Shown: positions 13,243-44,800 of the stretch, piece after piece
How the letters are laid out: the number at the start of each line of letters is the position of its first letter
Position numbering within the stretch: position 1 is the stretch's first letter
Source of the DNA: an uncultured Cellvibrio sp.
GTDB taxonomy: Bacteria; Pseudomonadota; Gammaproteobacteria; Pseudomonadales; Cellvibrionaceae
Assembly: GCA_937958105.1 (NCBI GenBank)
Contig: CALFXJ010000038.1
Span: forward strand, 55,555 to 119,554
Length of the DNA stretch: 64,000 nt
Direction of reading: 5' to 3'
Translations under genes and position numbers: made by a program
The notes under the pieces: generated by a model
What the model saw: the letters and a program-made list of their open reading frames with translations, nothing else
The model's database searches: none
Told to the model about the DNA's origin: nothing

Positions 13243-13363
13243 ATTCCTTACAATAAATCGTTCAGAGAAAAATCGATTAGGTGTGGTGCGAGAGCAAGGC
13301 GCATCAACAACATCGATAAACAGGTCGCTGGTTTTTCATTTACCTTGCTCTCCCTGATTGCCG

Positions 13364-22326: not shown

Positions 22327-22386
22327 CAAACCGGGAAGACAAAGGCCGCACCTGCGGCCACTATCACCAAAGAGGACTTAACCATC

Positions 22387-24708: not shown

Positions 24709-25080
24709 GGAGGAAGTTTTTGATAAGAGCTCGGAAAGGTTTGCGTTTTTTGCAGGCCTTTCTGGGGTTTTTGCGGGGGTAGAAAAGGTGCAGGCCTGCT
24801 CTGGATTAAAACAGGTAATTGGCTTCCTCGTCGTTGTAATTTCTAATGCGATCACAATAAAGGATGCCGGGACGGATCATGGTTGGTGTTCTGGCTGTGT
24901 TAAAAAATCAAATCGACATTTACCTCCCATAACCCCCAGTCAGACGGCAATCTTCAACCGATCGCTGTGGCAAAGCTTTTCCGCTTGCTGGTATAGAAAC
25001 CTACGTACTGTCATCTAAACCCTGATTTAGATAATGGCACGTTCCCTGCGCGTGCTCATATATACATAACGGAGGTGTAC

Positions 25081-25557
25081 ATGTCAGCCATTACCCAACT
25101 AACCAGTACAGTCAATGCATTGCGATTAAAATTTACTAATAATGAGCATGCTCTGCACACCGCCAGCCAAGCCGCTGCCACCATTAACGCCGGCCCTTCG
25201 AACCCCGCTCGCCATCATGGCTGGGATCACTTTCTTCCGAAGGTTGAGGCTAATCCAGAATTTGCAAAAACCATGGCGAAAGATGTGGCTTTTATTCCAG
25301 ACAAGCTCTTAGTCAATTTGAATGAGGCTCCACCGCTCAATGATGCAGAAGCCTGGCGCAGATGGACAAACCAATCAGTCGAGTTTGATAACACCGCCGC
25401 GAAGGTAACAGAGCAAAGAATTGAGATATATAACGATATGAAACTCCACGGTTCTACAGATGCAGAAATCTTCAAAGCTCTAATAGAATTTAACCACTCC
25501 CTACCCATGGACTACCAGATCAAATCTGGATTGATAAAATTAAATGCTTATGCGTAA
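25081..25557 (+). CDS. Hypothetical protein (158 aa)
   Basis: GGAGG RBS before ATG 25081; no recognisable motif. Confidence 0.65.
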   Translation: MSAITQLTSTVNALRLKFTNNEHALHTASQAAATINAGPSNPARHHGWDHFLPKVEANPEFAKTMAKDVAFIPDKLLVNLNEAPPLNDAEAWRRWTNQSVEFDNTAAKVTEQRIEIYNDMKLHGSTDAEIFKALIEFNHSLPMDYQIKSGLIKLNAYA

Positions 25558-25677
25558 TTCCCTGGACTCCATTGAATTTGAATGTCTTTGCCTGAGGTGA
25601 TCGCTTCAATTAATTATTAATTGCATCAATGACAGCAGCATCTCGCTTGCGCCTGTCTCAGGATAGGGGAAGTGGAC

Positions 25678-25890
25678 AGGATGTGCCGAGTGACTCTCTC
25701 AACAAGCAGCACAATCTAAAAAAGAAATAAAAAACGGTAACGAATTTCCATCCGTTACCGTTTACGTTTTACTGCTTGTAGAATTGTGTCGTTACTGCAA
25801 CACGTCAGGATCATTTAATAATGGATCATGCATCTCCGGGATCAACTGATCAGTTTGACCGGGACATTCGCTTTTGGAGGGATAGCCTTT
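25678..25890. repeat. Direct repeat copy A (partner-gene 3' end + terminator + downstream tail)
   Basis: Closely matches 28939-29152 (offset about 3,261 bp), including non-coding aggatgtgccgagtga...caagcagcacaatct...aaaaaacggtaacgaa. Confidence 0.92.
25721..25763 (-). terminator. Rho-independent terminator ending the minus-strand cassette
   Basis: Stem aaacggtaacgaa/tccgttaccgttt (25732-25763). The single mismatch becomes a G-U pair in minus-strand RNA, and a U-rich tail follows. Confidence 0.85.
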
Positions 25891-26841
25891 TTGCCAAGTA
25901 AGTTGTTTGGCGGTGAGCCAGCCTTTTACAACCGATGATTCCGTATCTTGTTTTTTATATTCCCCATCAATAAGTTTGTAATGAACAAGAAGCTCACCTA
26001 TTTTAAAGAAACCTGGCACGGGATCATTAACCAATTTTGATTGATAGAGCTTTCTCCACAACACAATGTCACGTGACTGACTGCTCTCAAAACCGCCAAA
26101 GTAAAGCTTTGATATAGACCGTAATGCGGGGTACAAAACTCTCCTGTCTTTCACTTCCAGTGTGGAATAAGCAATATACGCGGGGTCACTGGATTTATTG
26201 TTGGTCAATCCTGAGTTCTGAGCTTCTTCCTGGGAAAGTTCATCGCTCAGGTAGTAATGCGCGCTGAAAATTACGTTCTTCTTTTGCGGTGAAAAAACGA
26301 CAAAATCCTTGCCAATCGTTAATACGAGTTCTTGCTGTGCGTCTTCGTTAATATCACCATACCGCAATGGGTTGGCTTCCATACATCCAACACGATCTTT
26401 TAAATCTCCGGGAGACATAAAGTAGCTCGGTTCATAGTCGGGCACGATTGCCAAGGTATCTGTGCGATTAAACTGCTCGCCATAAGCGGCTGCAATGGCT
26501 TCAGTCGCTAGAGAGTCTTCTCCGCCGATTTTTAGATGTTCTGAGTAGGGTTCGAGAGACCATGAACCGATAAGATCTCGGCTAGAATAACGCGTTGCGT
26601 ATAACTTCATCCTCTCAGACAGCGAATACACAACGCCAGTATCTTCAGAATGAAGAAATGCTCTAACTACCGGGTCACCAACCGATCTTTGCCCTGTTCT
26701 AGCAACAGAAAGTGGCAAGCTTGTTTGAGCAAGCGTAGAAAGGTTCTCCATTGTTACCCCAACACCTTGACTCAAAGCCAATTCCTGCGAACTCACCGAT
26801 ATCGAAGCAAACAATACTGCTGATAAAAAACAATTCCTCAT
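25792..26841 (-). CDS. Exported partner protein, paralog 2 (putative immunity protein of the orphan cassette)
   Basis: Signal peptide MRNCFLSAVLFASISVSSQ; ATGA overlap with the orphan-tip stop; homologous to 29054-30046 with an identical last 32 aa. The longer ORF-track start (26940) is rejected. Confidence 0.75.
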   Translation of the reverse strand: MRNCFLSAVLFASISVSSQELALSQGVGVTMENLSTLAQTSLPLSVARTGQRSVGDPVVRAFLHSEDTGVVYSLSERMKLYATRYSSRDLIGSWSLEPYSEHLKIGGEDSLATEAIAAAYGEQFNRTDTLAIVPDYEPSYFMSPGDLKDRVGCMEANPLRYGDINEDAQQELVLTIGKDFVVFSPQKKNVIFSAHYYLSDELSQEEAQNSGLTNNKSSDPAYIAYSTLEVKDRRVLYPALRSISKLYFGGFESSQSRDIVLWRKLYQSKLVNDPVPGFFKIGELLVHYKLIDGEYKKQDTESSVVKGWLTAKQLTWQKGYPSKSECPGQTDQLIPEMHDPLLNDPDVLQ

Positions 26842-28884
26842 GGTATAGCCACCCCTGTTACACAATCTATACGCCCTACTGGAGCTATTGGAGGCACTGC
26901 CAAAGGGTCGCCAACAGCAGCATCCAATGCATGAACCCACGTAGTTCCATTAGTCCACTCATTCTCCCCATAAGCAAAACACCAAGGCTCCGTTGTTTCT
27001 ATCACACCGGCAACCGGTGGAGTCGCTGTTGGGTCAGCAGGAATATCCTGAATAATACCATCACCATTAACATCAACACCTAAACCGCCTTGCCATACAT
27101 AAGTCCTATAGGGAAGATTCAATTTATCCACATCATGCATCACTCGCATGGCATAACGCATGGATTCCGTATTAGCAAACAACTGCCGTTGCTGAGCTGT
27201 CCTCTGACGATAACTGAGCCCACGAGCAGTAATAAAGCTTGGGTCCAGAGGGGTTACCCTGTCCAATAACATATTGATCCAGGAGCGTCCTGTACCTCCA
27301 CCAAAAATTGCTGCCCCCTGGTTGTAACCACCTAACCCCTTCGCCAGTAATTCGTAATCATCATCCGTATGGTTTGTTCCCGTAACAACAGAAGACACTG
27401 CCGTTGTTTCTATTTTCCTCAAGGGTGTTGCCACTGGCCATTGATAAATATCCCGATAACTCCTGCCGCCTGTGGTAGCAAATGCTCGATAAAAACTACC
27501 GCCACCACCACCGTTCTGACGAGGGACATCATCAATTGCCAGCCATACCGCTTTGGCAATCAGATTATGACGTGCATCATAATGATTAACCGCACTCACG
27601 CCAGCCGCGGTATAACCGGTAACCTCTTCCGCTGCGCTGCCATTTCCATCCTGTGCGCTCCCACCATAAGTGTAAGTATTCAGTAACTGGTTAAAGCCTT
27701 TACTACCTCGCTCATCACCACCACCGACAATTATTCGATAGTCAGCTTGATGCCTACCATTGGCTTCCATTTGCGCCATAGCTTTGAGAATCTGATGTCG
27801 TTCAAAGGTAGAGCCTGTCAACGTCTGTATATTGCTGTGTCTGGCTGCTGTATATGTCGGCGGGATGTTAGCGAAGCTTGGTCCGCCAGGATAATTAACG
27901 ACGCCATCCCAAACCGCTTCCGCCGCCTGAATCGCATTACCAGCTTGTGCACTCGTTTGTCCGCTAGCATTCGGTTCAAGATTCGCGTAATTAATCGTAG
28001 CACTCCCCTGCCAATGTGTATGTGCCAATATAAAATGACGCCAATGCCTGCCTATTTCAGCGATGGGCTGTTCACCAGTTACCGGTCCAGTATGCATTTC
28101 TTGTGTTTCATAGACTACCGGGCCATAGCTGATGTAATTAAATCGTCCGACCATGCGCCCCACTGACGGCGTAGAAGTAACAAATCGGTTACGATCTGCA
28201 ACACCCAGTCTTACGCCATATACTCCTGGTTTAGCGCTGGGCGACATGCCAATATTCCACATTACCGCCTCCAACATCGCCACGTCGCTGCCCGTCATCG
28301 GATTACTTGGATTAGCGTGAAACTCACGAGTTTTTACACGAAAATTGGTCCGATAATCACGCGGTACGCGCAATCCATCAACACCTGATGGAATGGTATA
28401 GCGGGCATAGAGGCTCGCCTCAATACCAGTATCTGTGGTTTGGGTGCCCGCCCAGTTTGACCAGTCAGTATCACCATTGGCGTCGACCGGCTCCCAGTAA
28501 ATATTGCCGTCATACAGATTACCTTGGGAATCCTCCTGTACATAAGGAATGTTAGCCTCAACCAGTGCGCAGGCATCCGCTGTTGTGTTAGTAACGCCAT
28601 AACGACGGCAGAAACGCCCACGATGGCCAAAGCGCCACTCCAGCCGGGTTAATTCAGTTCCGGCTAATGACGGGGGAATATAGCGATAACGTAACCGCAT
28701 GCCACCCAAGGTCCGAACACTGGGTATTTCCAGCATCGTCGCCGGTGCATTGACCGGTGTGCCCTGCTCTCCCGTTTCAAGCAAGCCAAGGATTTCAATA
28801 TCCGTTTCCACAACCCCGTTGCGGTTTTCCGTGTCGCCCGGTACCTGGTAATACACATGCAACCCGTTGCGGGTAAAGGCCCAC
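26838..28884 (-). pseudogene. Start-less orphan C-terminal module (PG-binding + lytic-transglycosylase-like), paralog of residues ~942-1634 of the 30060-34964 protein
   Basis: Intact 681-codon frame beginning WAFTRNGLHVYYQVPG. No signal peptide or RBS; the ORF-track start (28973) falls in non-coding repeat DNA just after a terminator. Confidence 0.8.
28789..28884. repeat. 96-bp homology anchor, copy 2
   Basis: 92/96 identical to 32047-32142 by hand alignment. Confidence 0.95.
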
Positions 28885-28948
28885 AAAAATGCAGGAAAGC
28901 ATTTTTGCACGGCGAAGCCGCCCGCAGGGCGAGGCACAAGGATGTGCC
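28884..28948. other. Compact four-hairpin element at the cassette junction
   Basis: caaaaatgc/gcatttttg, cggc/gccg, gccc/gggc and ggcaca/tgtgcc in tandem. Confidence 0.7.
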
Positions 28949-29152
28949 GAGTGATTCCCTCGACAAGCAGCACAATCTGAAAGAAGAAATAAAAAACGGT
29001 AACGAATTTTCATTCGTTACCGTTTACGTTTTACCGCCTATTGATTTATTTCGTTACTGCAACACGTCAGGATCATTTAGCAATGGATCATGCATCTCAG
29101 GAATTAACTGATCAGTTTGGCCGGGACATTCACTTTTAGAAGGATAGCCTTT
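28939..29152. repeat. Direct repeat copy B (partner-gene 3' end + terminator + downstream tail)
   Basis: Matches 25678-25890. Confidence 0.92.
28981..29025 (-). terminator. Rho-independent terminator ending the main operon
   Basis: Perfect 13-bp stem aaacggtaacgaa-ttttca-ttcgttaccgttt (28994-29025) followed by a U-rich tail on the minus strand. Confidence 0.88.
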
Positions 29153-30046
29153 TGACCAAGTAAGCTGTTTGGTAGTAAGCCATGTTTTGATGGTGGCTTC
29201 TTCGGTATCCTGTTTCTGATATGTGCCTTCGATGAATTTATAATGACGCACAACTTCTTTTTTGAGTTCAAATCCTTTTATGGGATCTTCCTGTAAACGA
29301 GATTCGTATCGTTTACGCCAAACCAAAATATCAAGCTCCTCATCTCCATCAAAATCATCAAAATAAACTTTTGCATAAGCTCGACGACCTACCCCACCAA
29401 TACGCCCCAACGCATCAGAAAGGTATTGCACTTTGCTGCCCGGAGGTGCCTCCACAGAATCTTGCAGGGCCAATCGGGCAGAAAATTCAATGGCAGCAGA
29501 CTGCGGAGAAAACAGTATCCAATCAAGTTGCTGGTCATTCTTTCCCATGTAAATAACCAAACTATCCTTGCCATTATTTTCCAAAGCACCATATCGCAAA
29601 GGCGTATTCGCCAAGCAACCTAATGAGCTCGTATTAAGTAAACGTTCATGAGCATATAAATGCCAAACATCACCCTCTGAGGCACCTTCCATGTCATAAA
29701 TAGACGCAACTTCTTTATCGATTAACTCGGTAGGCCAGCGAGTGAGGAGCCAGCCCGGATTAAACTGCTTTGTATTTACGTTAAAAAATACCACCCTACC
29801 GTCTGCCTTTAATGCATAGTATTCACCATCAATATCAGATTGAATAAAAGCTAGCGGTGACGAAGTATTTTCTGGGCAAGGATTATTCCATCCACAAAAA
29901 GACGCTGCATACGGCAAGCTTGTGGCTGCAAGATCCATAATGGTTTGGTCATTAACGCTGACTCCCTTTTCCAGTTGGATTTGGGAATATACCGATGAGC
30001 AGGACAAAAGAAAGCTTATTGAAAATATATACAATATTGATTTCAT
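29054..30046 (-). CDS. Exported partner protein, paralog 1 (putative immunity protein of the full-length effector)
   Basis: Signal peptide MKSILYIFSISFLLSCSSVYSQ; GGAG RBS right after the upstream stop; paralog of 25792-26841. Confidence 0.8.
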   Translation of the reverse strand: MKSILYIFSISFLLSCSSVYSQIQLEKGVSVNDQTIMDLAATSLPYAASFCGWNNPCPENTSSPLAFIQSDIDGEYYALKADGRVVFFNVNTKQFNPGWLLTRWPTELIDKEVASIYDMEGASEGDVWHLYAHERLLNTSSLGCLANTPLRYGALENNGKDSLVIYMGKNDQQLDWILFSPQSAAIEFSARLALQDSVEAPPGSKVQYLSDALGRIGGVGRRAYAKVYFDDFDGDEELDILVWRKRYESRLQEDPIKGFELKKEVVRHYKFIEGTYQKQDTEEATIKTWLTTKQLTWSKGYPSKSECPGQTDQLIPEMHDPLLNDPDVLQ

Positions 30047-30059
30047 CAAATTACTCCAG

Positions 30060-33000
30060 TCATTGACAAGCTATTCTTCCGACAGCAGGATTAAGCATAC
30101 TTCCTATAGCAGCTGTCCGCACGTCGGCATATCTTCGCCCGGCCATCCACTCCTTCTCCCCATAGGCGAAACACCATTCAGGCTGCCCCGCATTGAGATG
30201 CGGCTGGCCGGTAACCGGGTCTGTCTGGGGATATCGAGCGCCCACCCAAATATAGGTAACAAATGGTAAATAACCACCGATATCTGCTTGAATCGTCCAA
30301 CTTTGTTGCTTGACACCTAGCCAGTAACCAAAATGGGTGGGGGAGAAATTGCCTGCCGGAGTGCGACGCGGCATACCTTGCAAAGCAGTAAAATATGAGT
30401 TGTTTCGTAGGTTGTTAGCATTGGCACCTTGATTATAAGCAATTACCGCTTTACCCAAGAGGTTGTAACCATCGTCGTGAGTGCTATTAAAAGCAATCCA
30501 GTTAGCTTGGTTACCGGCGCGAGAACATCGCGGACCGACCATATCGCCAGGTGCGGTTGTTTCATAACAGTATGACAGCGGAGTGTTTTGCTGAGGATGG
30601 GCAACCACATAATCAGGGGTAGTTTGGCCCTGTGTTGTGATGTAAGCGTTGTATAAACCTCGTGAGTATGTACAGGCACTGTCGGAAGCCGCAGCGAGAA
30701 ACGCCAGCGCACTGTTTACCGGGTGGTAAAGATTAATATTTTCCACGCCATTGGTCAGGAAACCTCGATTGGATTCACAACTGTTTTCCGCCCCGTACAT
30801 ACGTTTCCAAACAATGTGGTTATAACCCATACTACCCTCTTCATCTCCACCCCCTTCGTTAATACGGTAGGGGCTAGGTTGGTAATTGGAGATATTGTTA
30901 CCCCAGAAAATTGCACCATTACCAACCTCTTGGAGTATCCATGATTTGAATACTCCCTCACGAGCAATGCCTTGGGCAACTTGGGGGAACTCAGCGACGA
31001 TATCGTCATGGATTGCTTGCGTGTACGTTGCCTCTAATGTGTAGGTAGCAGGTAAATTACCCGAGTAAGGTATGTCGCCGCCCTGATCCGCTAACTGTTC
31101 GATATCCACCCAAAGACTTGCGGGAAGTTGCCGATAAGTAAACACAGGATGTGCTGCATACGTTTCCACAGCCCGAAAATAATGGGACCAAATCCGTTGC
31201 AAGCGTCTCAAGGTAACATTGTTCACAATACCGCTTACATCAGTTGTTGTATTAGTGCCTGCTAAATCGTTGATATTGACATTCCTGGCCTGAAACCGAC
31301 GAATCATACCCTCCAAAGAAACTTGTCCTACCAGACATTGGGCACCCCATCCGTAGTAATACATACCCCTATTGTCAGCAGGAGCTCCCTGACAATTTTG
31401 AGTCCAGTTACTTAACCCGCTGCCATTTCGAGAAGAGTTTATCCTCGCTCCCAAGTATCCTGAGTTGTAGTTTGGATTCGCTCCATACTGCGGACTAATC
31501 CCCAACTGCCACAACATCGCCTCCAGCATCGCCACATCACTGCCTTCCATCGGATCAGCCGGGTCTGGCCTCAGTTCGCGGGTCTTGATATGGAAAGTCT
31601 GCTCATAAGTGCGCGGAACACGGTTGCCTCCAGAGCTGGAGGGGATGGTGTAATGTGCTTTCAGGCTAGCTTCAACACCTGTATCAGCCGTTTGCGTACC
31701 CGCCCAGTTGGACCAGTCCACGTTCGTGGTACCTGCCATGGGTGGTGCAGGTTGGTCCGTCAGGGGTTCCCAATACACATCGGCGGTGTCACCGGGTGGG
31801 ATGTTGGTTTGTTTGTAAACTACACCCGCATCAACAACCGTGCACTGCCCTTGCGGATCATCAACCCCATAGCCCTGGCAGTAGCGGCCACGTTTGTTGA
31901 TGGTCCAGTCGACGTAGGTAATTTCTGTACCGGCAAGTGATGGCGGTATATAACGATAACGCAAGCGCATGCCACCCAAGGTACGTACTACCGGGTCCTG
32001 AACCGGCATAACACCGGAACCCGCTTCACCCGGCTCAAGCAGGCTCAGGATTTCAATATCCGTTTCCACAACCCCGTTGCGGGTTTCCGTGTTGCCCGGC
32101 ACCTGGTAATACACATGCAACCCGTTGCGGGTGAAGGCCCACTCCCACAATGTATTCCCAGCGTCGTGGTTGAGGTACAAACGGATCGTGAGCAGATCAG
32201 TCGGGTCGAGATAATCAAGTTGCTCAAGATTGTCAAAACGAATTTCGCCCGTGTCTGTCACGGTAACCTTGAGTTCATGAGCACCAAGACTCATCACCAG
32301 TTCCTGTTCGCCCTCAATAGCGGTAAGGCGTGGAACGGTTTGTTGTACCAACGAATAAAACACGGAGACCAGATCATCGTCGCTGCGAATGGTGGGGATC
32401 TTGCCGTCGATTAATTGTTCCGTCAGTAATTCCTGTTCGTGGGCTTGGCCGCTTTCATCGGTATACTCACGCAGGATGCTATCGATCTCCAATTGGAACT
32501 GACTGAACTGGTATTCAGGGCGGTAGGTCCAGCCGTAGCTGGGCAAGGGCTTGGTCGGTTCGGTATCAATGACTTCCGCATCGTAGGCTTTCCTGGCCTG
32601 ATTCCAGGCAGAGAAGACTTGCCATTCCTTATCTTCGTCGTGTAACGGCACAAGGAAGGGAGTCAGCACGCGGGGGCGGTACTGCATCATATCCGAGGCA
32701 GCCGCGCCCCCCATGTCAAAACTGGGATTTTCGTCCTTCGGGGTGCCGGATACGTGGATGTAATAGTGTTCCGGCACCGTCAGGTTACTCCTGACCTGCA
32801 GAACTTGCATATTACGCCCTGCGGCAATGGGAAAGTTGGACAGGTCATTGTCCGTCACTGCCTGAATAAGATTGGGCGTTACGATCTTGGCCAAACGTCC
32901 AGTTAGACCATATTGCTCGCCGTGGTCTACACTCAATCCTTCCGGCAAAGGACGGCCATCATGATCAAACCATTCGGTGTAGATGGTAATGCGATCATCC

Positions 33001-34964
33001 GATACCCGGCCTGCGCCTTCCGCGCCAATAATATTATTCCGGCTTTCCCGCTGACGGGTTAAGCCGTTGTCATGCGTATAATCGCGCTCCGCCCAGACTT
33101 TCAGGTTCGGCGGTCGCAGGACAATGTCTTTTACCGGCACATTTAAGTAGCCACCGGGATTTCGGCTGGCATCGCTTAGCTGAACACGTTGGGTATCCAT
33201 GTAGCCGGTAGCGCGATTAATAACAACCAGGCGTATCCACTCGCCGGGTTTCAAATGATCCGACTCCTGGCTTTGGAATGAAGCAGTTAGTTTATTGCGT
33301 GAGGCCCAGTCGTCCCAACTACCGGAACGATTTGTGCCACCTATATTGAGATTACCGTCGCGCGGGCCGCGCAGCATGACCCGGTAGAAGACGTTGTCAT
33401 CGCCCTGCCCCATCCCCACTTGAGCACGCCCGTCAATCTCCGCATCGCGCAATCCCCTCCGCTCCATCACCAACTGGCCGGTAGATTCACGGAATACGAG
33501 AATGTCCGTGTTTTTAAAATCATCTTCGCTGATGCTGCTGAGAAGACCGTTGCTTTTGAATGCATTGCTTCCTTCGCGTTTTTTTTCTCTGTCGGCTTGA
33601 CGTATAACATTTGGCTGGCCAGTTGTTCCTCTCGAACTAAAATAAACGCCTTGGACACTGCCTGCGGGATCAGCCTCAAATATCGTTTCCACACTTCCAT
33701 CCGGTTGTGGTTGTTGCACCAGTTTACCCAAGACAGCCGTGTCGGGCTTTCCATCACCATCAAAGTCATAAAACGCTTGCGCGACAGGCGTAACAGAAGA
33801 CGCCTGCACTACATACTCAGTCGTATCTCCAATCGGAATAGGCACAACCGAGCCAGGTGTTCCCCCCGGATTGCCAATCAATATACGCCCAGTCAGAAAC
33901 ATTACATCCACCCGCAAATCAATGGCGTAATTGGGTGTGGACATGGTGGCAAGTGAGGCTATCGTATTAGTGTAGGCCATGGCGCCGCCCAGGCTCATGT
34001 CATACATTGCAGCGCCGTTACAATAGCTCCAATCCTGCCGACGCAGATAGTAAGGCAACACCGGTGCACCATTTGGGCTGAAGTTGGTGTAATAAAGTTC
34101 CGCCCATACATCCGTAGTGTGTTCAAAACTGAAACCCGGGCATGGAGGCAAACGAAAATTAAGACGGTACTTTCCCTCTCTGTCGGTCACATCCACGCCG
34201 CCCGGATAAACCCATTCATCCACATACACTTTTACGAATGGAACTGGCCCAAAAATTTGGTCTTCAGATCCGCGTGTGTAGCCTCCATAAAAGTCCTGTG
34301 CCTCTTTGGGATCTCCGAAGAAGCCGGACCGGGGCGCAATATTAAGATGTGAAAAAGCTATAATTCGCCCCTGCTCGTTCATGACAAGACTGACAGCATC
34401 ATCCGGTGGTGATGGCTGCGTAAGGTCAACACTGAAGGACATTAATATCAGTTGATCCGGGGCTGTCGTCAGGCGGTTACTGCGCCCGCGGACCAGCACA
34501 CTCTTCTGATGCTCCAACAATCCTGGTTTGTCAATAGATTCGCCACTTACCGTTAAAAAGTTGGCTTGCTTGTATTGTTCCCCACTCAACAATTGCGCGT
34601 CTTGCGCCAGAGGATTGCTAGGACGCTCAGTAAACTCTTTCCATCGATTATATTCACTTGTGTATTCGTAGGCGCTGATGATTTGTAGACGGTCAACCTT
34701 GTCCGCATATTCCCCCAAAGCCACTTCACCAGCCTCGGATCCATCCTCGTTGTACTGAACAAGGATAGGTTGACCTTTCTCATCCAAGGCCATTGCACGG
34801 GCCATCACTGCACCGTGTTTATAAACCTGGTTCTGGTAATAAGCAATCGCAAAGACAGTGTGTGCAGATAGCGTCAATGCAACCGCAACAGCAAACCGGT
34901 AAACAGGCGGTATACATTCCTTAACTAACTTCATTTTCATGTGGTTATGGTTCCCTGACATCAT
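30060..34964 (-). CDS. Large Sec-exported modular protein: ~940-aa N-terminal stalk + C-terminal PG-binding/lytic-transglycosylase-like module (putative polymorphic muralytic effector)
   Basis: Signal peptide (RFAVAVALTLSAHTVFA); GSDVAMLEAMLWQLG...IRRFQARN...SGIVNNVTL (PG_binding_1-like); SWILQE / GSMGYNHI / IAYNQG (SLT-like motifs I-III). Confidence 0.75.
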   Translation of the reverse strand: MMSGNHNHMKMKLVKECIPPVYRFAVAVALTLSAHTVFAIAYYQNQVYKHGAVMARAMALDEKGQPILVQYNEDGSEAGEVALGEYADKVDRLQIISAYEYTSEYNRWKEFTERPSNPLAQDAQLLSGEQYKQANFLTVSGESIDKPGLLEHQKSVLVRGRSNRLTTAPDQLILMSFSVDLTQPSPPDDAVSLVMNEQGRIIAFSHLNIAPRSGFFGDPKEAQDFYGGYTRGSEDQIFGPVPFVKVYVDEWVYPGGVDVTDREGKYRLNFRLPPCPGFSFEHTTDVWAELYYTNFSPNGAPVLPYYLRRQDWSYCNGAAMYDMSLGGAMAYTNTIASLATMSTPNYAIDLRVDVMFLTGRILIGNPGGTPGSVVPIPIGDTTEYVVQASSVTPVAQAFYDFDGDGKPDTAVLGKLVQQPQPDGSVETIFEADPAGSVQGVYFSSRGTTGQPNVIRQADREKKREGSNAFKSNGLLSSISEDDFKNTDILVFRESTGQLVMERRGLRDAEIDGRAQVGMGQGDDNVFYRVMLRGPRDGNLNIGGTNRSGSWDDWASRNKLTASFQSQESDHLKPGEWIRLVVINRATGYMDTQRVQLSDASRNPGGYLNVPVKDIVLRPPNLKVWAERDYTHDNGLTRQRESRNNIIGAEGAGRVSDDRITIYTEWFDHDGRPLPEGLSVDHGEQYGLTGRLAKIVTPNLIQAVTDNDLSNFPIAAGRNMQVLQVRSNLTVPEHYYIHVSGTPKDENPSFDMGGAAASDMMQYRPRVLTPFLVPLHDEDKEWQVFSAWNQARKAYDAEVIDTEPTKPLPSYGWTYRPEYQFSQFQLEIDSILREYTDESGQAHEQELLTEQLIDGKIPTIRSDDDLVSVFYSLVQQTVPRLTAIEGEQELVMSLGAHELKVTVTDTGEIRFDNLEQLDYLDPTDLLTIRLYLNHDAGNTLWEWAFTRNGLHVYYQVPGNTETRNGVVETDIEILSLLEPGEAGSGVMPVQDPVVRTLGGMRLRYRYIPPSLAGTEITYVDWTINKRGRYCQGYGVDDPQGQCTVVDAGVVYKQTNIPPGDTADVYWEPLTDQPAPPMAGTTNVDWSNWAGTQTADTGVEASLKAHYTIPSSSGGNRVPRTYEQTFHIKTRELRPDPADPMEGSDVAMLEAMLWQLGISPQYGANPNYNSGYLGARINSSRNGSGLSNWTQNCQGAPADNRGMYYYGWGAQCLVGQVSLEGMIRRFQARNVNINDLAGTNTTTDVSGIVNNVTLRRLQRIWSHYFRAVETYAAHPVFTYRQLPASLWVDIEQLADQGGDIPYSGNLPATYTLEATYTQAIHDDIVAEFPQVAQGIAREGVFKSWILQEVGNGAIFWGNNISNYQPSPYRINEGGGDEEGSMGYNHIVWKRMYGAENSCESNRGFLTNGVENINLYHPVNSALAFLAAASDSACTYSRGLYNAYITTQGQTTPDYVVAHPQQNTPLSYCYETTAPGDMVGPRCSRAGNQANWIAFNSTHDDGYNLLGKAVIAYNQGANANNLRNNSYFTALQGMPRRTPAGNFSPTHFGYWLGVKQQSWTIQADIGGYLPFVTYIWVGARYPQTDPVTGQPHLNAGQPEWCFAYGEKEWMAGRRYADVRTAAIGSMLNPAVGRIACQ
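32047..32142. repeat. 96-bp homology anchor, copy 1 (internal to the effector gene)
   Basis: Encodes WAFTRNGLHVYYQVPGNTETRNGVVETDIEIL; 92/96 identical to 28789-28884. Confidence 0.95.
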
Positions 34965-37900
34965 TGCTGCAGTGCACTGCGCAATTGCTGTAACGTTTTT
35001 GTGCCGTCTACAACATCTTGTAGAAGCGGCTGCTGGGAAAGATCAACTAATGCATAGCCTATGTAATCCAGTGTATTGATCTGGACCTTTCCTACACTTA
35101 TTATCCTGTAGTTTTCGATCTGCCCGATACCAACTGGCTCGATAACTTCTCGATCCGGGTTGTAACCCAGCAACACAACATATTTTATTTCCGGAGAAAT
35201 GTAATCGTAGGTGCCGGCTAGCATCGGGACTTTAATGTCGATACTAATGGGATTTTCCACCGCAACTCCCCGCGGCTGGCCAGCGAACATCCACTGCGGC
35301 CAAGCACCGGGAGTTACAGCTGCATTAAGCTGGCTGTAAGGCATGAATTGCACCTGCAGATTGCCGGAGGTCCGGCCGTTTTTAAACAATAATCTGGCTC
35401 CGGTTAAATCCAGCCGTAATTCATCGCCTGCCAGGCTGACGAGCCCCTGATCGGCGCTGATTAACTGGAACGGGATATCAGGGTGAAGCTCTGGTAAGCG
35501 TGACAAGCTGATTTCATTCTTGCGTCCTTGTTGCAGGTTAATAGTTCGCACCTGTGTCCCGTATCCCGGCACGGCAAAATCGGGATTAATGATCAGCTCA
35601 TGACGGCCACCAGGAATTTCATTACCAGCAGCCTCTTGAAAGCCAAAGGCAAAGCTGCCGTCATTATTTGTCGTGGTGGTGCGATTAAGAGACGTCAGCT
35701 TTACCGGCACTCCTGATAACGGCTGGCCGAATTGATCAACTACACCACCGATAATAAAAGTAGGCAGCTGACGTATTTTGAAATTGAATCGACCCAGTTC
35801 GTTACCATCGTAGATTACATCTACATAAACATCTGCATTAAAGCCGAAATGACGATTCGCGTAATATGCAAAACTCTGGTTGCCAGGTAAAACAGACACT
35901 GCACCTGGGACTATCTCGTTGTCGCGGTGCACTTCCTGAAGCTGATAGCCCTGCGCGGTCAGGAAATCAGCACCGGATGGATCAAGATTCAAGTAGGTAT
36001 TACCATGCAGCGTTTCACTGACCGTTATCGTCAATTTGGAAGGATCGATCGCTTTATTGAAGTAAAGCTCAACAGGCTGGTTTGGCTCGCGGTTATTTGC
36101 GTTATTCTCGGGCGAGTAGCGTACCAGTTCCACCGGTATCGCTGTCTCATCAGTCACTCGTACCTGACGCGTCGTAGACGCAACGATTATATTCTGTGCG
36201 TTTAAGACTTGATAATTGAGCGTGTATGTACCAGCTTGTGGAGGAACTGTAACGTCTCCGCTGGCCAAGGTCCCAACAACGGTCAGCTCTGTTTGTTGAG
36301 TATTTACTACAACTACTACACGATGCCCTTCACCGATTTCCGTAAGTCGAGCTGCAGCCTGGACTTTTATGGGATCACCTCGCCCCAGAAGCTCGGCATT
36401 TTCACCAGGCAATAACGGTGTAATCGAGGCTTGTGCTGTGGATTGAAAAATATATGCCACACTGGTCCGGTTGCCACTTATGTCGTACGCATTAAAGACC
36501 AATTGGGCTTGTGCGCCCGCGGCTAAAGATACAGGCAGGGTGAAGTCGTATTGGCCGACGCTTGCTCCCGGGCGTAATACCAGGGGCTGGTCATTAACAG
36601 TGATGCTGGACAGATTGTCATCACTTACTGTGCCATTTACAACGAAGGGTGATTGGATAACATTGTTAACTGCAGGGCTGGGCTGCAGGCTTGCATCAAG
36701 TATTAGCCGTGGCGGTGTACCGTCACGATGATACTGCGCAACAAGCCTGGAGGTCTTACCAAGTGCATCGCGAGCTTCAACCGTCACATCGACAGTGTCT
36801 ATGCCTTCAGGAAACGAAATTACCTGTTCGAAATAATAATCCTGCAAATTACCGGCTGGGGCAGAAACCGCCATACCATTTACTGTCACCTCAGCGAAAC
36901 CCGCGTGACTAATGACTCGCCCTTTGAAGCGAAAACTGCTATCGCGCAACTGGCTGCCATTAGCAGGCGCGACTATCGAGAGCCTAGGCTCCTCAATAGC
37001 ATCCGGATCTTCCGGTGTGTAGGTAATCGTCAATGTTTGAGAGTCTGCACCAGCAAGCGACTCAACCCGCAGAACAAATACATTCTGTCCTTGTTGCAGG
37101 CGAATATCTGGCAAAGCGAAAGCATATAAGCCTTCCTGACCGGTACCATCCGGGGTTATCTGCCATTCGTTAATGTAAAAACGTATAGCATCCAGAGCTA
37201 ACAGGGTCTCCACCTGGCCCTTGATAGTCACGGTTTCTTCGGATATTACCGCACCATTAGCAGGGGAAATATTTACGAGACGCGGCGGGGAACTACGTTG
37301 CACCTGATGAGTAGCCTGAGTCATATTGCCAGAAAAATCCGCTGCCACCACTGTCAGCAGATTCATCCCGACCGCCAGCGGTACTTCCGCCATAAACTGA
37401 TTCGCTGTAATTGTTGCTGTAACAGCTGATGCAGGAAACCGGTCCGAGGTTACAGTCACGCTTTGAATACCGCTGTATGGCTGAGCCGGATCAGATACAG
37501 ACCCTCGCAATACAACTGTGGGGGATTGCACCATTTCATCGGGGGTATTGGATATTTGCAGTAATGGAGCAACACGATCCGGGTAATCGTTAACATCGTC
37601 AGGATTGGTCCCTGCTTGAAGTTCTTCTTCATTGGAAAAGCCGTCACCATCACGATCCGGGTCGCTGTTATCACCGATACCATCACCATCCATATCAGAT
37701 GATTCATTGGGATCATCCGGGAATGCATCTTCATCATCAGGAATACCGTCGCCATCACGATCGGGTTTTGAATATTTGATATTCAACGATTGGCTAACAC
37801 TACCATCCGGTGAAGTTGCTTCTAACGTTAATACGTTATTTCCTTCCTGCAGCATCACCAAGAAAGAGAATAAATAAGCCCCAGCGGTGCCAGACAGGGG

Positions 37901-40111
37901 ACGCAGTGTATCGTCAAGATAAAGCTGTACATCATCTAACGACCAGGCAGTTATGACTTCACCAGTGACTGTAACAGTCGGAGCTGACACTTCAGAGCCA
38001 TCAAACGGTCCGCTAACGATTAATTGAGGAAGTGATATTCTGTGAACAAGAATAGAATCTACCGTTATGTTGCCGGAAAAATCTCGTGCCTCAACTTGAA
38101 TAAGGTTGCCCCCCAGCACCAGCGGGACACTTGCAGAGAAAGTTTGCTCATTGAGCGCAGCCGTAATCTGGTGGCCTTGTGTAGTGGACAGGACTACCGA
38201 TGCGATACCGCTATTTTCCTGTACCGGATCAATAACATTGCCTGTGATGAGGATTTCGCCAGCATCTATTGGCGTATCCGGCTGGTCAATCTGTAACTGC
38301 GGGGGAGTCAGATCTGGAGCAGGAGAAGTTCCTTGGCAGAGTTCACCAAAGTCAGCTAGTGAGACTGCGTTTGGCGTATAGGTCACATGACTGTCACTAT
38401 CTAAGGTAATTCCTTTGCCGTTCACTGCACCAAAGATCTGGGTTTGATAGTTCAACCTTACTTGACCACGACTATAAACCAGGGCGTGAGCGCTGCTGCT
38501 AGTATGAAATTCAATATCACCATAGCCATAGATAATGAGTTTGGCCGAATCCTCGGTGTTGCCATTAAGTTGAGCAGACCATGGAATATATAAGGGGTCC
38601 CTGATAAATAATCGCGCCGTTCCATTACCCACTACCTCTATCCTGGTGTCTGCTTCAAGTGCTAGACGCTCGATCCAATAATCCCCGGCGGGCAATCTTA
38701 GAGTGCTGCCGTAGCCTACATTCATTTCGCGAATCAGGTACGCATCAGGTTGAGCGGTAAAGTTTACTGTTGCATCAGCGGCAAGTGTGACCTGTCCGTG
38801 CTCCAGCTCATCGCTACCATTAATCGTGAATATGGATGACCAAGGCACCATTATCGTATTAGTTGCCAGTGTTGACTTAAAATCTCCCGCAGTTAATGTT
38901 TGGCTGGGAACGCCTGTCGCAACGCATTGAGTATCCTCACAGCTCTGAGCCGATCCACCCATAGTAATCACATCAACTGCTGATAACTGATGTGATGAGC
39001 CGCTGCGTAACTGCGCATTCTGCTGAAAGCTTATGGTTCCCACGTCGCCATGAGCCTGGAGTCCATTACCGAATGCCGCACGACATATGTTTCCAACAGG
39101 AGGTGGTGAGCTGCCCACAGGTGGCTCCTGGCTCCCATCACCACCTGTTCCTCCACAAAATGTGGATAATTCAGTCTGAGCAAGCGATCCGACGTCTGCA
39201 TAAATTTTTCCGGAGGAGCCAAGATTAGCCTGATGAAAACTGGCAACGCCGTAGAGCTTGGCTTGCGCGATACTAAGCCTGTTTTTACTGTAGCTCACCG
39301 CAGATACTTCAGAACCCGCCTGAAGGGTCAGATCTCCGTGGGTATAGATAAATAGTTTGCTGGCATTATCCGGGCTGCCTGCCGATGTCATGTTTGCATA
39401 GGACTGCCAGGGAAATGTTAGTCCGTTCTTAACGTAGAGCTGGGCAGTTCCCTCACCTACCACGTTGATTCGGCTCCCTGTGGCCAATGTCAGATTATCA
39501 ACCCAATAAATACCTGGCGATAAATTTAACGTAGCTGCATAACCAAGATTTAATTGATTGATATGGTATGAAGTTGTAATGGGTGAAAAAGTTAAAACTC
39601 CTTCTCCATTAACAGTAACGGATCGAAATTGATTATATTGATGCGTGCCTAAGGTAGCACTGCCTTGATAGACCACCTGGTAGTCAACACTACTGGTGTT
39701 TTCTGGAAAATCTATGTTAACAGCCTCAGCGTGTTGCGCAGAGGCACTGCAGCGGCGTGTACCACAACTGGGCAAAACGGACCAAGCAGAGTCATTGACG
39801 CGTGCCACCATTAATGATTCTTCTGCGGCATCCAACAGCTGTGCGTTCCAATCAAAACTGATTTCACCATCCGGCTGATGGCTCTGAACAGCCACGGGAA
39901 AAATGCTTTCACATGGTAGAGATGCTCCGAATACCGGGCTGCAAAGCGTTAGAAAAACCCATCCCATCAATTCAGAAATGCCCTTTTTCCTGGCATTGCT
40001 AAATGACCATCCCTCGAGAGCCGAGTCCTGTCTATTTAAATAATTTTCCATACGACCCTGTCTCATGTAGCCCAAGAGAGACCCTGCTCTCGCTGATAGT
40101 AAAGAACCCAT
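34961..40111 (-). CDS. Large exported Ig-like/TSP3-repeat protein with a duplicated N-terminal domain
   Basis: Repeated Ig-like units (PPQLQIDQP, PRLVNISPANG, PRLSIVAPANG); Ca-binding DxDxDG repeats at about 37580-37770; SbsA-Ig-like ELVRYSPENN; carboxypeptidase-regulatory-like GGVVDQFGQPLSGV. Overlaps the next gene (ATGA). True start uncertain. Confidence 0.8.
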   Translation of the reverse strand: MGSLLSARAGSLLGYMRQGRMENYLNRQDSALEGWSFSNARKKGISELMGWVFLTLCSPVFGASLPCESIFPVAVQSHQPDGEISFDWNAQLLDAAEESLMVARVNDSAWSVLPSCGTRRCSASAQHAEAVNIDFPENTSSVDYQVVYQGSATLGTHQYNQFRSVTVNGEGVLTFSPITTSYHINQLNLGYAATLNLSPGIYWVDNLTLATGSRINVVGEGTAQLYVKNGLTFPWQSYANMTSAGSPDNASKLFIYTHGDLTLQAGSEVSAVSYSKNRLSIAQAKLYGVASFHQANLGSSGKIYADVGSLAQTELSTFCGGTGGDGSQEPPVGSSPPPVGNICRAAFGNGLQAHGDVGTISFQQNAQLRSGSSHQLSAVDVITMGGSAQSCEDTQCVATGVPSQTLTAGDFKSTLATNTIMVPWSSIFTINGSDELEHGQVTLAADATVNFTAQPDAYLIREMNVGYGSTLRLPAGDYWIERLALEADTRIEVVGNGTARLFIRDPLYIPWSAQLNGNTEDSAKLIIYGYGDIEFHTSSSAHALVYSRGQVRLNYQTQIFGAVNGKGITLDSDSHVTYTPNAVSLADFGELCQGTSPAPDLTPPQLQIDQPDTPIDAGEILITGNVIDPVQENSGIASVVLSTTQGHQITAALNEQTFSASVPLVLGGNLIQVEARDFSGNITVDSILVHRISLPQLIVSGPFDGSEVSAPTVTVTGEVITAWSLDDVQLYLDDTLRPLSGTAGAYLFSFLVMLQEGNNVLTLEATSPDGSVSQSLNIKYSKPDRDGDGIPDDEDAFPDDPNESSDMDGDGIGDNSDPDRDGDGFSNEEELQAGTNPDDVNDYPDRVAPLLQISNTPDEMVQSPTVVLRGSVSDPAQPYSGIQSVTVTSDRFPASAVTATITANQFMAEVPLAVGMNLLTVVAADFSGNMTQATHQVQRSSPPRLVNISPANGAVISEETVTIKGQVETLLALDAIRFYINEWQITPDGTGQEGLYAFALPDIRLQQGQNVFVLRVESLAGADSQTLTITYTPEDPDAIEEPRLSIVAPANGSQLRDSSFRFKGRVISHAGFAEVTVNGMAVSAPAGNLQDYYFEQVISFPEGIDTVDVTVEARDALGKTSRLVAQYHRDGTPPRLILDASLQPSPAVNNVIQSPFVVNGTVSDDNLSSITVNDQPLVLRPGASVGQYDFTLPVSLAAGAQAQLVFNAYDISGNRTSVAYIFQSTAQASITPLLPGENAELLGRGDPIKVQAAARLTEIGEGHRVVVVVNTQQTELTVVGTLASGDVTVPPQAGTYTLNYQVLNAQNIIVASTTRQVRVTDETAIPVELVRYSPENNANNREPNQPVELYFNKAIDPSKLTITVSETLHGNTYLNLDPSGADFLTAQGYQLQEVHRDNEIVPGAVSVLPGNQSFAYYANRHFGFNADVYVDVIYDGNELGRFNFKIRQLPTFIIGGVVDQFGQPLSGVPVKLTSLNRTTTTNNDGSFAFGFQEAAGNEIPGGRHELIINPDFAVPGYGTQVRTINLQQGRKNEISLSRLPELHPDIPFQLISADQGLVSLAGDELRLDLTGARLLFKNGRTSGNLQVQFMPYSQLNAAVTPGAWPQWMFAGQPRGVAVENPISIDIKVPMLAGTYDYISPEIKYVVLLGYNPDREVIEPVGIGQIENYRIISVGKVQINTLDYIGYALVDLSQQPLLQDVVDGTKTLQQLRSALQQ

Positions 40112-41883: not shown

Positions 41884-44800
41884 TTACCAACCGTAGCCAT
41901 AACCGTAACCGCTGTCTGGTTCACTGCCCCACCAGTCACCGCCGCCGGAGCCATATCCACTGCCGTAACCACTACCTGAACATTCAAAGTCTGCATAATC
42001 GCTCATCTCTGGCACGTAGGCCTCTACAAAAAACTCACCGTTTTGGTCACTTAAGCTTCCAACCATCAGGTAATAAACTCCTCTGGGAAGAAGCGCAATA
42101 AATCCAAGGTCCTTTTCACACGTTTCTGGTGCAAGAGCGACGACAGCACCTGCTGCAGTACGGATCAAGACTTTCGGCTCAAAATCCTGACTGCTAACCC
42201 GAATAACGTAATAGTCATCGGTTGTGATTTCCAAAGGAACAATAACGGCATCGGGAGCCATCAACTCTCGAATCGCAATGATGTCCGGATACATCCTTTC
42301 CTGCGGAACAGGAATGGGAACTGGCGCAGGTATAAGGCGGCGATAATACCGCGTGCCATCGCCTAGCTCTCCATAATAGTTGCTTCCCCATCCCCACAGA
42401 TTGTTCTGTGTATCCTTCATAAGGACATGGCTATATCGAGCTTTAATCTTGATGGGTTTTACGTTCCCGAGCTTATCCAAGTTAACCAGGTCCGGTATTA
42501 CACGGGAATAGGAATCTCCATCGCCTAGTTGACCCTCTCCATTACGCCCCCAACCCCATATACGAGACAGGTCATCGAGAATTAAGCTGAACCCATCACC
42601 TGCAGCAATCGCGACAATTTCAGCATCATCTAAGAAGCTGGTATCCATCAAAGTAGGTAACGATCTTAAAGTTGTTGTTCCATCACCCAGCTCTCCGTAG
42701 TTATTGCTCCCCCAACTCCATAAACGACCAGCGCTATCCAAAGCAAGAGTGTGCGAAAGCCCGACGGATACATTACTCCAGCGATCAACCCCTAAAGCCA
42801 TATTATCAATCAATGTTGGCACCAACCGATTTGTGCGAGAATTATCACCTAATTGGCCATAATAGTTGTAACCCCAACCCCATAGTCGCCCCTGATCATC
42901 CAGCATCAGGTTGTGGTACGTTCCTGATGCTATGGCAACTGGTTTGGCATCGCCAAAAATGGACGATGGCAGTAAGTAGGGTTCTCGCAGTGCGACCGTT
43001 GTTGAATTTCCTAATTGCCCTTCATAGTTACGTCCCCAGACCCAAATGCCATTGTCCTCATCCAGCGCGACACTGTGACCGTAACCAGCCGCAACGGAGA
43101 CGATAGGCTTGTTATCGAATAGGGCAGCATCCAACAGGAAAGGAGTCCCGACTCTATATTCACCTACAACGCCCACTTGGCTGTAGTAATTATAGCCCCA
43201 TGCCCTCACACGACCATCACTGGTTAAAAGCAGGTTATGCTGGCCCCCACTCACAACACTCAACACCTGAGTATTCGCAGGTAACGTCAAATTGAAAGGC
43301 AAAGGACGATCTTGAGGTATATAAGTTCCGTTACCTAACTGCCCGTCACCGTTCGCCCCCCAGCTCCACAGGCGGGATTTTTCGTCGCTTGCAATACTAT
43401 AGTTTTGACCTACAGAGAATAGATAATGATCATCTCTTGGGCAGCGAATTGTGTGACGGTCAATTTGCTGTGACTGAGCATCCAGGATTTCTATAGTTCC
43501 CATTGCAGCCACCTCAAAACGGGAGCAACTGTAGTCGGTATCAATAGTTAGTTCGCAACCGCTGCAGAGGATTCTTTCAACACTCGATTCGCCATCAACA
43601 GTTACAGCACCGTTTCCAGTAAAACGTACGAAGTAATCTTCTTCGGACGTATTGCGATGAATTATCTTTGCCGTGCCGTTTTCTTCCTTTTCTATGGCGA
43701 TATGAATATTTGGCAGGCACCTCAGCTGGAAACTGGCGGATGCGAGTTCGATATTGTTCTGATCCACCAACTCAAAATACTGAGTTGTCAAACCGGATTC
43801 CACGCAAATTGCGGGGTCAACTTCCAGGGTTCCACCGACCTCCTTCGGTCCACTGATTACAAACTCGTCACCTATTGATGAAAAACGAACATATGAATTA
43901 GTGGAGGTAATGCGCTGGACATTAAAGTATTCATTCTTCGCAACAATTCCTGTCAATCGTACGAAAGCATCCTGCCCAATTACAATGGATACCGGATCAG
44001 CCATTGCAGTTAATGAAAGTGAAGCCAGAGCATCCGCTTCTAACTCATTAATATGGCCAATAAAGGTAGGGGCGGCTCGCCCTGTTGTTGTACCGTCTCC
44101 CAACTGGCCGTAGTAATTTGCACCCCATGCCCATAGGCCACCATCCTCATCTATGGCCAGCGCATAGTTATAACCTGCATATACTTCTATTATCTTTCTT
44201 CCACCAAAGAGAGCTGGGTCAACCAATCCCGGATAATCACGGTAATATTCAGTTCCACTACCTAATTGTCCTTCCCAGTTTGAACCCCATGACCAGAGTC
44301 GGCCATCATCATCAAGGATAATGCTGAAAGCAGAGCCAGCTGTGATTGAAATGATTTTGTTGCCGGCTAACTGAGTCGTATCAACCAATCTCAGTGTGTG
44401 AAGCTCACCATTAGAACCGTCTTGCTCACTATCGCCCCACACCCACAGACGCCCCAAATCATCAAGCAAAAGGCTGTGGAAAGCACCCGCGACAATGGCG
44501 TTAATTCTTTGGCCGGCAAGATTCGAAATATCGACTAGAGTTGGCTTACCGACGCTATCCTCACCTCCAATTCCAAGCTGCCCCAGATCATTGGCCCCCC
44601 AGGCCCAAAGCCTTCCTTCGACATCTACTGCCAGGCTGTGAGCATACCCTGCTGCGACCGCTACAACAGCTGTATTATTAAAATAGGCCGCCTTGATAGG
44701 AGCAGGTATCCTGGCTTTAGGTTTTTCCGAACCGTTACGTCCCAGCTGACCATAATCATTGTTCCCCCAAGCCCAAACCTGACCCTGATCGTCGAGCAAC

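Follow-up and report, generated by a model that had tools for sequence, protein, structure and literature searches.

A putative family of Sec-exported polymorphic effector proteins with cognate partner genes and orphan tip cassettes in Cellvibrio and other Gammaproteobacteria

The stretch of DNA analysed here, referred to below as the window, comprises 64,000 nucleotides of contig CALFXJ010000038.1 (positions 55,555 to 119,554) from the genome of an uncultured Cellvibrio sp. (assembly GCA_937958105.1). On its minus strand lies a gene for a 1,634-residue exported protein composed of a long constant stalk and a C-terminal tip, followed by the gene of an exported partner protein and by a second, start-less tip with a partner of its own. 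We consider it probable that this locus represents an undescribed family of Sec-exported polymorphic effector proteins, that is toxins, with cognate partner genes for immunity. The same architecture recurs in many genera: the stalk is retained up to a sharp boundary beyond which the proteins are polymorphic, the class of the partner matches the class of the tip, orphan tip–partner arrays follow the full-length genes, the orphan is maintained by selection, and some genomes carry loci with partner genes only. A literature search on the locus tags, on DUF7305 (a domain of the neighbouring gene product) and on Sec-dependent polymorphic toxins retrieved no paper on this stalk-tip family.

The full-length gene (30060..34964 in the list of open reading frames (ORFs); this and all features below are on the minus strand unless stated otherwise) encodes a Sec signal, a stalk of ~900 amino acids (aa), the junction motif and tip 1. 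The N-terminus of the product has a charged N-region and the hydrophobic stretch FAVAVALTLSAHTVFA, followed by IAYYQ. The conserved stalk, a signal helix and then a beta-sandwich rod, spans residues 1-944 (32133..34964); the junction or pre-tip motif RLYLNHDAGNTLWEWAF occupies residues ~925-944 (32133..32192) as delimited by the boundary alignment of 70 homologs, and tip 1 (693 aa) spans 30063..32141. Partner 1 (330 aa, 29054..30046), an exported protein with FG-GAP-like repeats and the candidate cognate immunity protein, begins with an ATG 10 nt past the tip 1 stop codon, with GGAG 8 nt upstream of this ATG. It is followed by an intrinsic terminator (28994..29025; 14-bp stem, 4-nt loop and T-run) and by a 70-nt junction element of four hairpins (28885..28954), which separates the terminator from the anchor of the orphan. 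Orphan tip 2 (26838..28884) counts 681 aa from the anchor WAF, plus the stop codon, and has neither a start codon nor a signal peptide of its own; the ORF that contains it (26838-28973) is 711 aa long, is likewise devoid of a signal peptide and has the anchor WAFTRNGLHVYYQVPG at residue 31. The ATG of the exported partner 2 (349 aa, 25792..26841) overlaps the tip 2 stop as ATGA, which couples the two genes translationally, and the terminator behind it (25732..25763) has a 14-bp stem and the same design as the first one. A truncated remnant of the hairpin element, TCACTCGGCACATCCT (25678..25693), marks the distal end of the array.

Direct repeats delimit the two units at 28939-32142 (3,204 bp) and 25678-28884 (3,207 bp). 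Our ORFs, direct repeats and terminators thereby bear out the coordinates, the unit lengths, the coupled exported partners and the matching terminators given in an earlier note on this DNA. The note had also called the second tip start-less; this holds in that we found no ribosome-binding site and no signal peptide, but GTG and TTG codons are present within the junction element, and the first ATG of the frame lies ~80 codons in. If it is made at all, the product of orphan tip 2 would not be exported. A promoter scan showed no excess over shuffled sequence and was uninformative on the expression of the orphan. Tip 1 and tip 2 are 34% identical across ~700 aa (E 1e-88) and the partners are 36% identical (E 3e-64) with their final 39 residues the same, a likeness that is, as judged from the sequences, far beyond chance.

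A search with the whole protein yielded 73 homologs from Cellvibrio, Neptuniibacter, Colwellia, Corallincola, Gynuella, Alcanivorax, Allohahella, Aquipseudomonas and many metagenomes. Approximately 45 of them align by BLAST only over residues ~25-944 and then diverge from the tip of the window, and the identity of the stalk among the homologs is 29-60% up to residue 944. The boundary alignment has the consensus RLYxNxDAGNxLWE[YW]AF, in which D934, N937 and L939 are invariant, and beyond it the homologs fall into at least 10 unrelated sequence classes. The prediction of the earlier note that the stalk would be constant, that tips and partners would vary after WAFTRNG and that orphan arrays would occur is therefore supported, the break at residue 944 being a sharp one. 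The AlphaFold2 model of the stalk, built on an alignment of 49 sequences, has a predicted local distance difference test score (pLDDT) of 85.5 and a predicted template modelling score (pTM) of 0.83; it consists of an N-terminal helix and almost exclusively of beta structure, with no barrel, YD shell or two-partner secretion (TPS) domain. Foldseek returned weak matches only, to macroglobulin, pilin, adhesin and cadherin folds. Scans of Pfam, NCBIfam and PADLOC gave no family match for the stalk, the tips or the partners, and the PDB, searched with sequences and with profiles, yielded no useful match to any of the three.

The C-terminal tips of the homologs form 10 clusters. A long class rich in immunoglobulin-like (Ig) domains is the largest (1,100-1,400 aa, 41 members), followed by the class of the window tip (620-690 aa, 21 members) and by minor classes with DUF900 / Abhydrolase_6 (alpha/beta hydrolase), Phosphodiest, Peptidase_M15_3 or RHS repeats. 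The polymorphism of the long class is nested: the first 700 aa make up one cluster and the last 300 aa eight. With the class of the tip, the class of the partner changes as well. Tips of the window class always have the FG-GAP-like exported partner directly behind them. Downstream of the M15 tip the gene product has a signal peptide and a C-terminal transmembrane segment, downstream of the DUF900 tip an N-terminal transmembrane segment, and downstream of the long Ig-rich tip it is a protein of 290 aa with no signal; for independent tip matches, the tip and the partner co-occur on one contig. Beside the M15-tipped member, a 678-aa ORF and a 162-aa fragment (locus 3293-6120 and 12959-13447) share an identical stretch of ~60 aa, GIHRVAVHTDKVHQYASLMSL..., and lie near an insertion sequence (IS) element and a HipA-type gene pair; judging from their sequences, they look like a further orphan or displaced module of a different tip class.

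Orphan arrays downstream of the full-length gene, which the earlier note had anticipated, are present in many genera. One case is Cellvibrio japonicus Ueda107, a tractable and harmless host with a full gene and two orphans. Its locus has the order DUF7305 gene, split stalk-tip gene with partner, IS element, CJA_2509 with partner and two orphans; CJA_2509 encodes 1,656 aa, and the two tips downstream of it (669 and 678 aa) are start-less and each have a partner. Tip–partner–tip–partner arrays also occur in Bermanella, Marinimicrobium, Bacterioplanes, Reinekea, Saccharospirillum and Oceaniserpentilla. The orphans often retain 3' fragments of the stalk of varied length, corresponding for example to query residues 858-944, 633-944 or 328-944. 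Orphan tip 2 and partner 2 of the window are 52.5% and 49.8% identical, respectively, to the attached CJA_2509 pair, and tip 1 is only 31% identical to the CJA_2509 tip. The orphan is thus closer to the mounted tip of C. japonicus than tip 1 is, so that one tip type is found mounted in C. japonicus and stored in the genome of the window.

Comparison of the two cassettes of the window indicates the age of their divergence. In the first 40 codons after the anchor, tips 1 and 2 share 89% DNA identity with a synonymous divergence (dS) of 0.31; over codons 40-230 the protein identity is 57-72% (34% in one 40-codon block) and dS is saturated; in the partner tail the non-synonymous divergence (dN) is 0.06 and dS 0.91. 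Across the conserved N-domain, dN between tip 2 and tip 1 is well below dS. From this pattern it follows that the two cassettes are alleles of old standing, kept by purifying selection, whose flanks on either side share more recent homology. In at least five samples, metagenome contigs follow the window colinearly through partner 1, the hairpin element and the orphan. Near-identical contigs among them do not differ from the window upstream of position 28789 and carry 14-19 differences within the orphan cassette, where the variants are 13 synonymous versus 1-4 non-synonymous ones and a dense tract spans 28656-28458 within the tip N-domain; tip 1 and partner 1 are identical in the contigs that bear this tract. 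These data point to recent recombination limited to the orphan cassette in the metagenome strains, and the cassette has a separate recombination history, the start of which lies within ~100 nt of the anchor. As the source of the variants, gene conversion from tip 1 finds no support, since 7 of 16 variant bases match tip 1, which is about the chance expectation; the tract must therefore come from another allele of the tip 2 type. Among 41 same-genus genomes there was no close relative with the same stalk that would allow a direct comparison of a swap.

Partner 1 has 402 homologs, and members of this group possess a signal peptide, two invariant Cys residues and the invariant tail ...PSKSEC.GQ..QLIPEMHDPLLNDPDVL. 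Their matches to FG-GAP_3 (22 of 40 members) and FG-GAP (11 of 40) are weak, with best E of 3e-5 to 5e-5, and the partner of the window reaches only E 0.31. A scan with the partner alignment, in one genome per species, located 49 loci in at least 15 genera; the same kind of scan with a single partner sequence as the query located none. In Thalassolituus a tandem partner pair without a tip in its vicinity is flanked on one side by the genes for oxaloacetate decarboxylase and carbonic anhydrase, and on the other by mdh and argS. Eight of the 11 partner-bearing genomes examined had no stalk or tip match at E<=1e-8, a count with limited sensitivity for very diverged tips and including several metagenome-assembled genomes (MAGs). 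By analogy, such partner-only loci fit the orphan immunity genes of type VI secretion system (T6SS) loci, where, according to two sources, successive displacement leaves old immunity genes behind and immunity-only arrays occur without a toxin (Kirchberger et al. 2017, PMC5361080; a preprint on acquired interbacterial defence clusters, bioRxiv 10.1101/471110). The likeness concerns the immunity-only arrays; unlike those at T6SS loci, the arrays described here retain whole tips and not only immunity genes, and there are no T6SS genes among the ORFs scanned.

A generic definition of polymorphic toxin/immunity systems was reportedly provided by Zhang et al. in 2012. Three of the properties by which such systems are recognised are present in our family: a constant N-region with a sharp boundary and unrelated C-terminal domains (the break at 944 in ~45 of the 73 homologs, and the 10 tip clusters), a small downstream gene that varies with the tip class, and orphan tip/immunity cassettes downstream, in the window as well as in C. 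japonicus and other genera. The closest system in design is MafB/MafI of Neisseria, reportedly described by Jamet et al. in 2015, which is likewise said to have a Sec signal, a constant N-region ending in a short motif and a toxin domain that varies at the C-terminus; its immunity gene is said to follow immediately, alternative C-terminal/immunity cassettes without promoters to form arrays, and no dedicated secretion machine to be known. Our family nevertheless differs from it in constant part, junction motif and genomic company. The window locus has no DUF1020 or MafA according to Pfam, its constant part is a beta-sandwich rod of ~900 aa, it belongs to an operon with a giant protein, peptidyl-prolyl isomerases (PPIases) and a DUF7305 protein, and the hosts are environmental Gammaproteobacteria.

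The orphan modules of CdiA-CT/CdiI and Rhs-CT/RhsI, reportedly described by Poole et al. in 2011 and Koskiniemi et al. in 2014, provide a second parallel. There too a sharp motif (VENN, PxxxxDPxGL) is said to precede the variable tip, and the downstream orphan pairs are said to carry variable lengths of the conserved upstream region and to be able to recombine into the main gene. Our proteins differ from CdiA and Rhs in their plain Sec signal export and in their junction motif. Hallmarks of contact-dependent inhibition (CDI), namely TPS, FHA, VENN and the CdiB POTRA/ShlB domains, gave no Pfam or NCBIfam match in the 1,634-aa protein, the 1,716-aa protein encoded upstream of it, the giant protein or the neighbours scanned. 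The 1,634-aa protein has no RHS match, its modelled stalk being a beta-sandwich rod rather than an Rhs/YD structure, and RHS repeats occur in one distant homolog (P0073) only, within the tip. VgrG, PAAR, Hcp and MIX/FIX were absent from the operon genes and flanking ORFs scanned, a set that does not cover the window gene by gene. The statement of the earlier note that CDI, Rhs, VgrG/PAAR and DUF1020 hallmarks are missing thus agrees with our scans of the operon proteins. Its further statement that the locus is not attached to CDI, Rhs or T6SS genes holds for the scanned proteins as well, but it had overlooked that the locus is attached to a conserved operon of another kind.

Taken together, the swappable-tip reading put forward in the earlier note is supported by the retention of the stalk, the variation of tips and partners and the orphan arrays, and a new family of the polymorphic toxin/immunity kind is the interpretation we favour. 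Under this interpretation the tip would be toxic and the exported FG-GAP-like partner would neutralise it in the periplasm of the producer. The second unit would be a displaced or stored allele, consisting of a whole tip of a different type that lacks promoter, start codon and signal, and of an exported partner of its own; this orphan partner may still protect the cell against neighbours bearing that tip type. Tips could be exchanged by homologous recombination, in which the near-identical anchor could serve as the upstream arm and the partner tail, the terminator and the hairpin element as the downstream arm. The protein would leave the cell through the outer membrane, possibly with the help of the giant-protein operon that its gene ends.

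Among the structural genes of a conserved operon, the stalk gene comes last. On the minus strand of the window this operon runs through the giant gene, two PPIase genes, the 1,716-aa gene and the 1,634-aa gene. The C-terminal 7,371 aa of the giant exported protein are encoded within the window (41884..64000) and the gene continues past it, to ~137,196 of the contig, giving 13,252 aa from the first ATG. It contains Big_7, TIG, LVIVD and TSP3 domains, four RCC1-like propellers and a Gly/Tyr-rich C-terminus ending in W, and a domain scan found no TPS domain and no RTX or type I secretion signature in it. The two SurA/PpiC-type PPIase genes (41839-41024 and 41020-40121; products of 271 and 299 aa, respectively; Pfam Rotamase, SurA_N) are followed by the gene for the 1,716-aa exported protein (34961..40111; two Pfam DUF7305 domains, Glucodextran_B/Big and CarboxypepD_reg), which is coupled to the stalk gene, the ATG of the latter overlapping its stop codon. 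A DUF7305 gene adjoins the stalk gene in Cellvibrio, Bermanella, Alcanivorax, Marinagarivorans, Agarilytica and Neptuniibacter. The full order giant–PPIase–PPIase–DUF7305–stalk is kept in Bermanella, Cellvibrio NN19, Alcanivorax and Neptuniibacter, and in each of them the PPIase genes are preceded by that of a giant ortholog of at least ~10,000 aa; the conservation of the PPIase pair in four genera suggests that these are private chaperones of the giant protein. The link to the operon is frequent but can be absent: some genomes with stalk-tip-partner genes have no match to the DUF7305 gene (E<=1e-20), and some loci of such genes sit beside housekeeping genes or an IS element, away from the giant operon.

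The genome is 3.96 Mb in size with 53.5% GC, the operon has ~47% GC and the stalk is present in a single copy. The operon island lies directly beside tRNA-Cys and tRNA-Leu genes, downstream of uvrC-pgsA, and no integrase was seen at its start beside the tRNA genes. Stalk homologs were found in only 5 of 41 genomes of the genus (the best being 57% identical); the locus is an accessory island. It opens, between the tRNA genes and the giant gene (contig ~137.6-141.3 kb), with genes for an epimerase and two glycosyltransferases, which may serve the glycosylation of the giant protein. Just outside the island, at 19945-24708 on the plus strand of the window, a multi-heme cytochrome c / TPR-HEAT protein gene and a sulfatase gene were noted in DNA of 63% GC. 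In Neptuniibacter, the strand opposite to the stalk gene carries a type II secretion cluster, gspF-M, ~4 kb downstream of that gene (locus 20653-26849), and this could be a hint to an exit route or a matter of chance.

In the AlphaFold2 model of tip 1 (pLDDT 86, pTM 0.87), residues 1-190 form two beta-sandwich domains, residues ~196-290 are a helical segment, and the remaining ~400 aa make up an alpha-rich C-domain. The C-domain contains the invariant E405 (E1346 of the whole protein) and a conserved AYNxG motif (AYNQG in tip 1), and two Cys residues are conserved at the C-terminal end of the tip. In the manner of SLT/GH23 lytic transglycosylases, an invariant Glu near a helix end, G(F/Y)N(Q/H) and AYNxG follow one another in the same order, with a weak PG_binding_1 match upstream; unlike in those enzymes, the spacing of the motifs is much larger. 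PG_binding_1 (PF01471) matched the helical segment in 3 of 38 tip members, weakly, with a best E of 3.3e-4; the SLT profile of Pfam matched none of the 38, and one remote relative scored 17.8 bits, below the cut-off. Among 1.84 billion representatives the C-domain has only 143 relatives, all of them tip-like. The earlier note had taken the tips to be directed at the cell wall, which our searches did not confirm, and the putative lytic-transglycosylase and peptidoglycan (PG)-binding identity amounts to a motif-level resemblance. What can most safely be inferred is that the tip acts in the cell envelope; that it hydrolyses the wall is possible, somewhat short of probable.

Several results weigh against a toxin/immunity interpretation and have to be set beside the evidence for it. 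The partner matches no known immunity family, FG-GAP proteins have many roles, and the partner-only loci could reflect an independent function of the partner. No tip-swapped allele was seen in the metagenome contigs. As for the window's tips, they have no Pfam match; hhalign of the helical segment against PG_binding_1 domains gave a probability of 1.4% over 19 columns, and that of the C-domain against same-genus SLT domains a probability of 9-13% over 13 columns, confined to AYNxG; and Foldseek of the whole tip model against the PDB and BFVD gave weak Ig-like matches of the N-domain and nothing lysozyme-like. Furthermore, many tips in the family are adhesin-like (Big_1, Invasin_D3, LamG), and hence the family could be one of polymorphic surface proteins and not of toxins. 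The stalk would then display variable heads for adhesion or nutrient scavenging, possibly on the giant fibre, the partner would be a periplasmic chaperone or a regulator, and the variation would serve the diversity of substrates or surfaces. The abundance of Ig, Invasin_D3 and LamG domains in the largest tip class, the resemblance of the stalk fold to adhesins and pilins, the operon with a giant Ig/propeller protein and chaperones, and the polysaccharide-degrading habit of the marine and soil hosts (Cellvibrio, Microbulbifer, Marinagarivorans, Agarilytica) are all in keeping with surface display. However, start-less and signal-less orphan tips with intact exported partners are not expected for scavenging enzymes, the class and the predicted location of the partner change with the tip class, and the partner-only pairs far from tips argue against a chaperone role because a chaperone would not be kept without its client. 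On balance we regard surface display as unlikely.

The tip might instead be a PG hydrolase of the producer itself, which opens the sacculus for the assembly of the giant protein, with the partner as its inhibitor and the second unit as a paralogous spare. The motif-level likeness to PG_binding_1 and to SLT motif III, with the invariant Glu at a helix end, would suit such an enzyme, as would the export of both the tip protein and the partner and the translational coupling of the gene to the giant-protein operon. Yet stalk-tip genes exist in genomes without the DUF7305 gene and at loci away from the giant operon, in other members the same junction leads into lipase-like, phosphodiesterase, M15 or RHS tips, and orphan arrays with ancient allelic divergence do not fit a housekeeping enzyme; neither fold nor profile comparisons support a lysozyme-like domain. 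Self-directed wall remodelling consequently appears to us distinctly improbable. Least probable by far, in our opinion, is the fallback named in the earlier note, a decaying tandem duplication in which the second unit is a pseudogene and its likeness to an orphan cassette is coincidental. The lack of a start codon and signal peptide in tip 2 and its position behind a strong terminator might give this impression, but the reading is contradicted: the 711 codons still form one open frame although the proteins have diverged by 66%, synonymous sites are saturated with low dN in the conserved blocks, the population variants are mostly synonymous, the same tip type is active in C. japonicus, and the layout recurs in many genera.

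The toxin/immunity interpretation may be extended, rather doubtfully at present, to the operon as a whole. The stalk-tip protein could be the exchangeable warhead of an unrecognised delivery apparatus made up of an Ig/propeller fibre protein of 10,000-13,000 aa, two SurA-like chaperones and the DUF7305 protein, with the Cellvibrio hairpin element taking part in cassette exchange or orphan control. If this is true, an apparatus of this kind that presents or hands polymorphic toxins to neighbours would constitute a new route of contact-dependent antagonism in Gammaproteobacteria. Polymorphic toxin systems shape the coexistence of strains, and each new trafficking class of them has opened new secretion biology. 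The present family occurs in at least 15 genera of marine and soil Gammaproteobacteria, has only a Sec signal and a long Ig-like rod, and usually ends the operon for one of the largest bacterial proteins known, while its clean junction motif offers a handle for finding new toxin and immunity domains. It may also tie giant surface proteins functionally to antagonism between bacteria.

The four-hairpin junction element deserves separate consideration. The 70-nt sequence is ~90% identical to four copies in C. japonicus (locus 7937-8007, 16127-16197, 19379-19449 and 22744-22814) and to one in a Cellvibrio MAG (locus 2466-2535), while the flanking stalk proteins are only ~53% identical. In the six sequences, 3 of 22 base pairs show compensatory double changes and 0 show one-sided changes, 98.5% of the alignment cells are paired, and the folding z-score is -3.0. 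All differences of the four C. japonicus copies from the window fall in loops or are compensatory double changes, except for one G-to-A in hairpin 1 of one copy, and the MAG copy also has one unpaired position. As the changes are non-synonymous in the read-through frame, the constraint is on the structure of the nucleic acid. Rfam gave no match for the element, and it was absent from the other genera in which it was sought, where plain terminators only were present. Candidate roles are stabilisation of the partner mRNA at its 3' end, insulation of the orphan and service as a site of recombination. The genome contains one full copy; at the distal end of the array only the first 16 nt remain, the homology stopping inside the loop of hairpin 1, and depending on the copy the element is joined to the anchor or to the stalk at residue 494 or 236.

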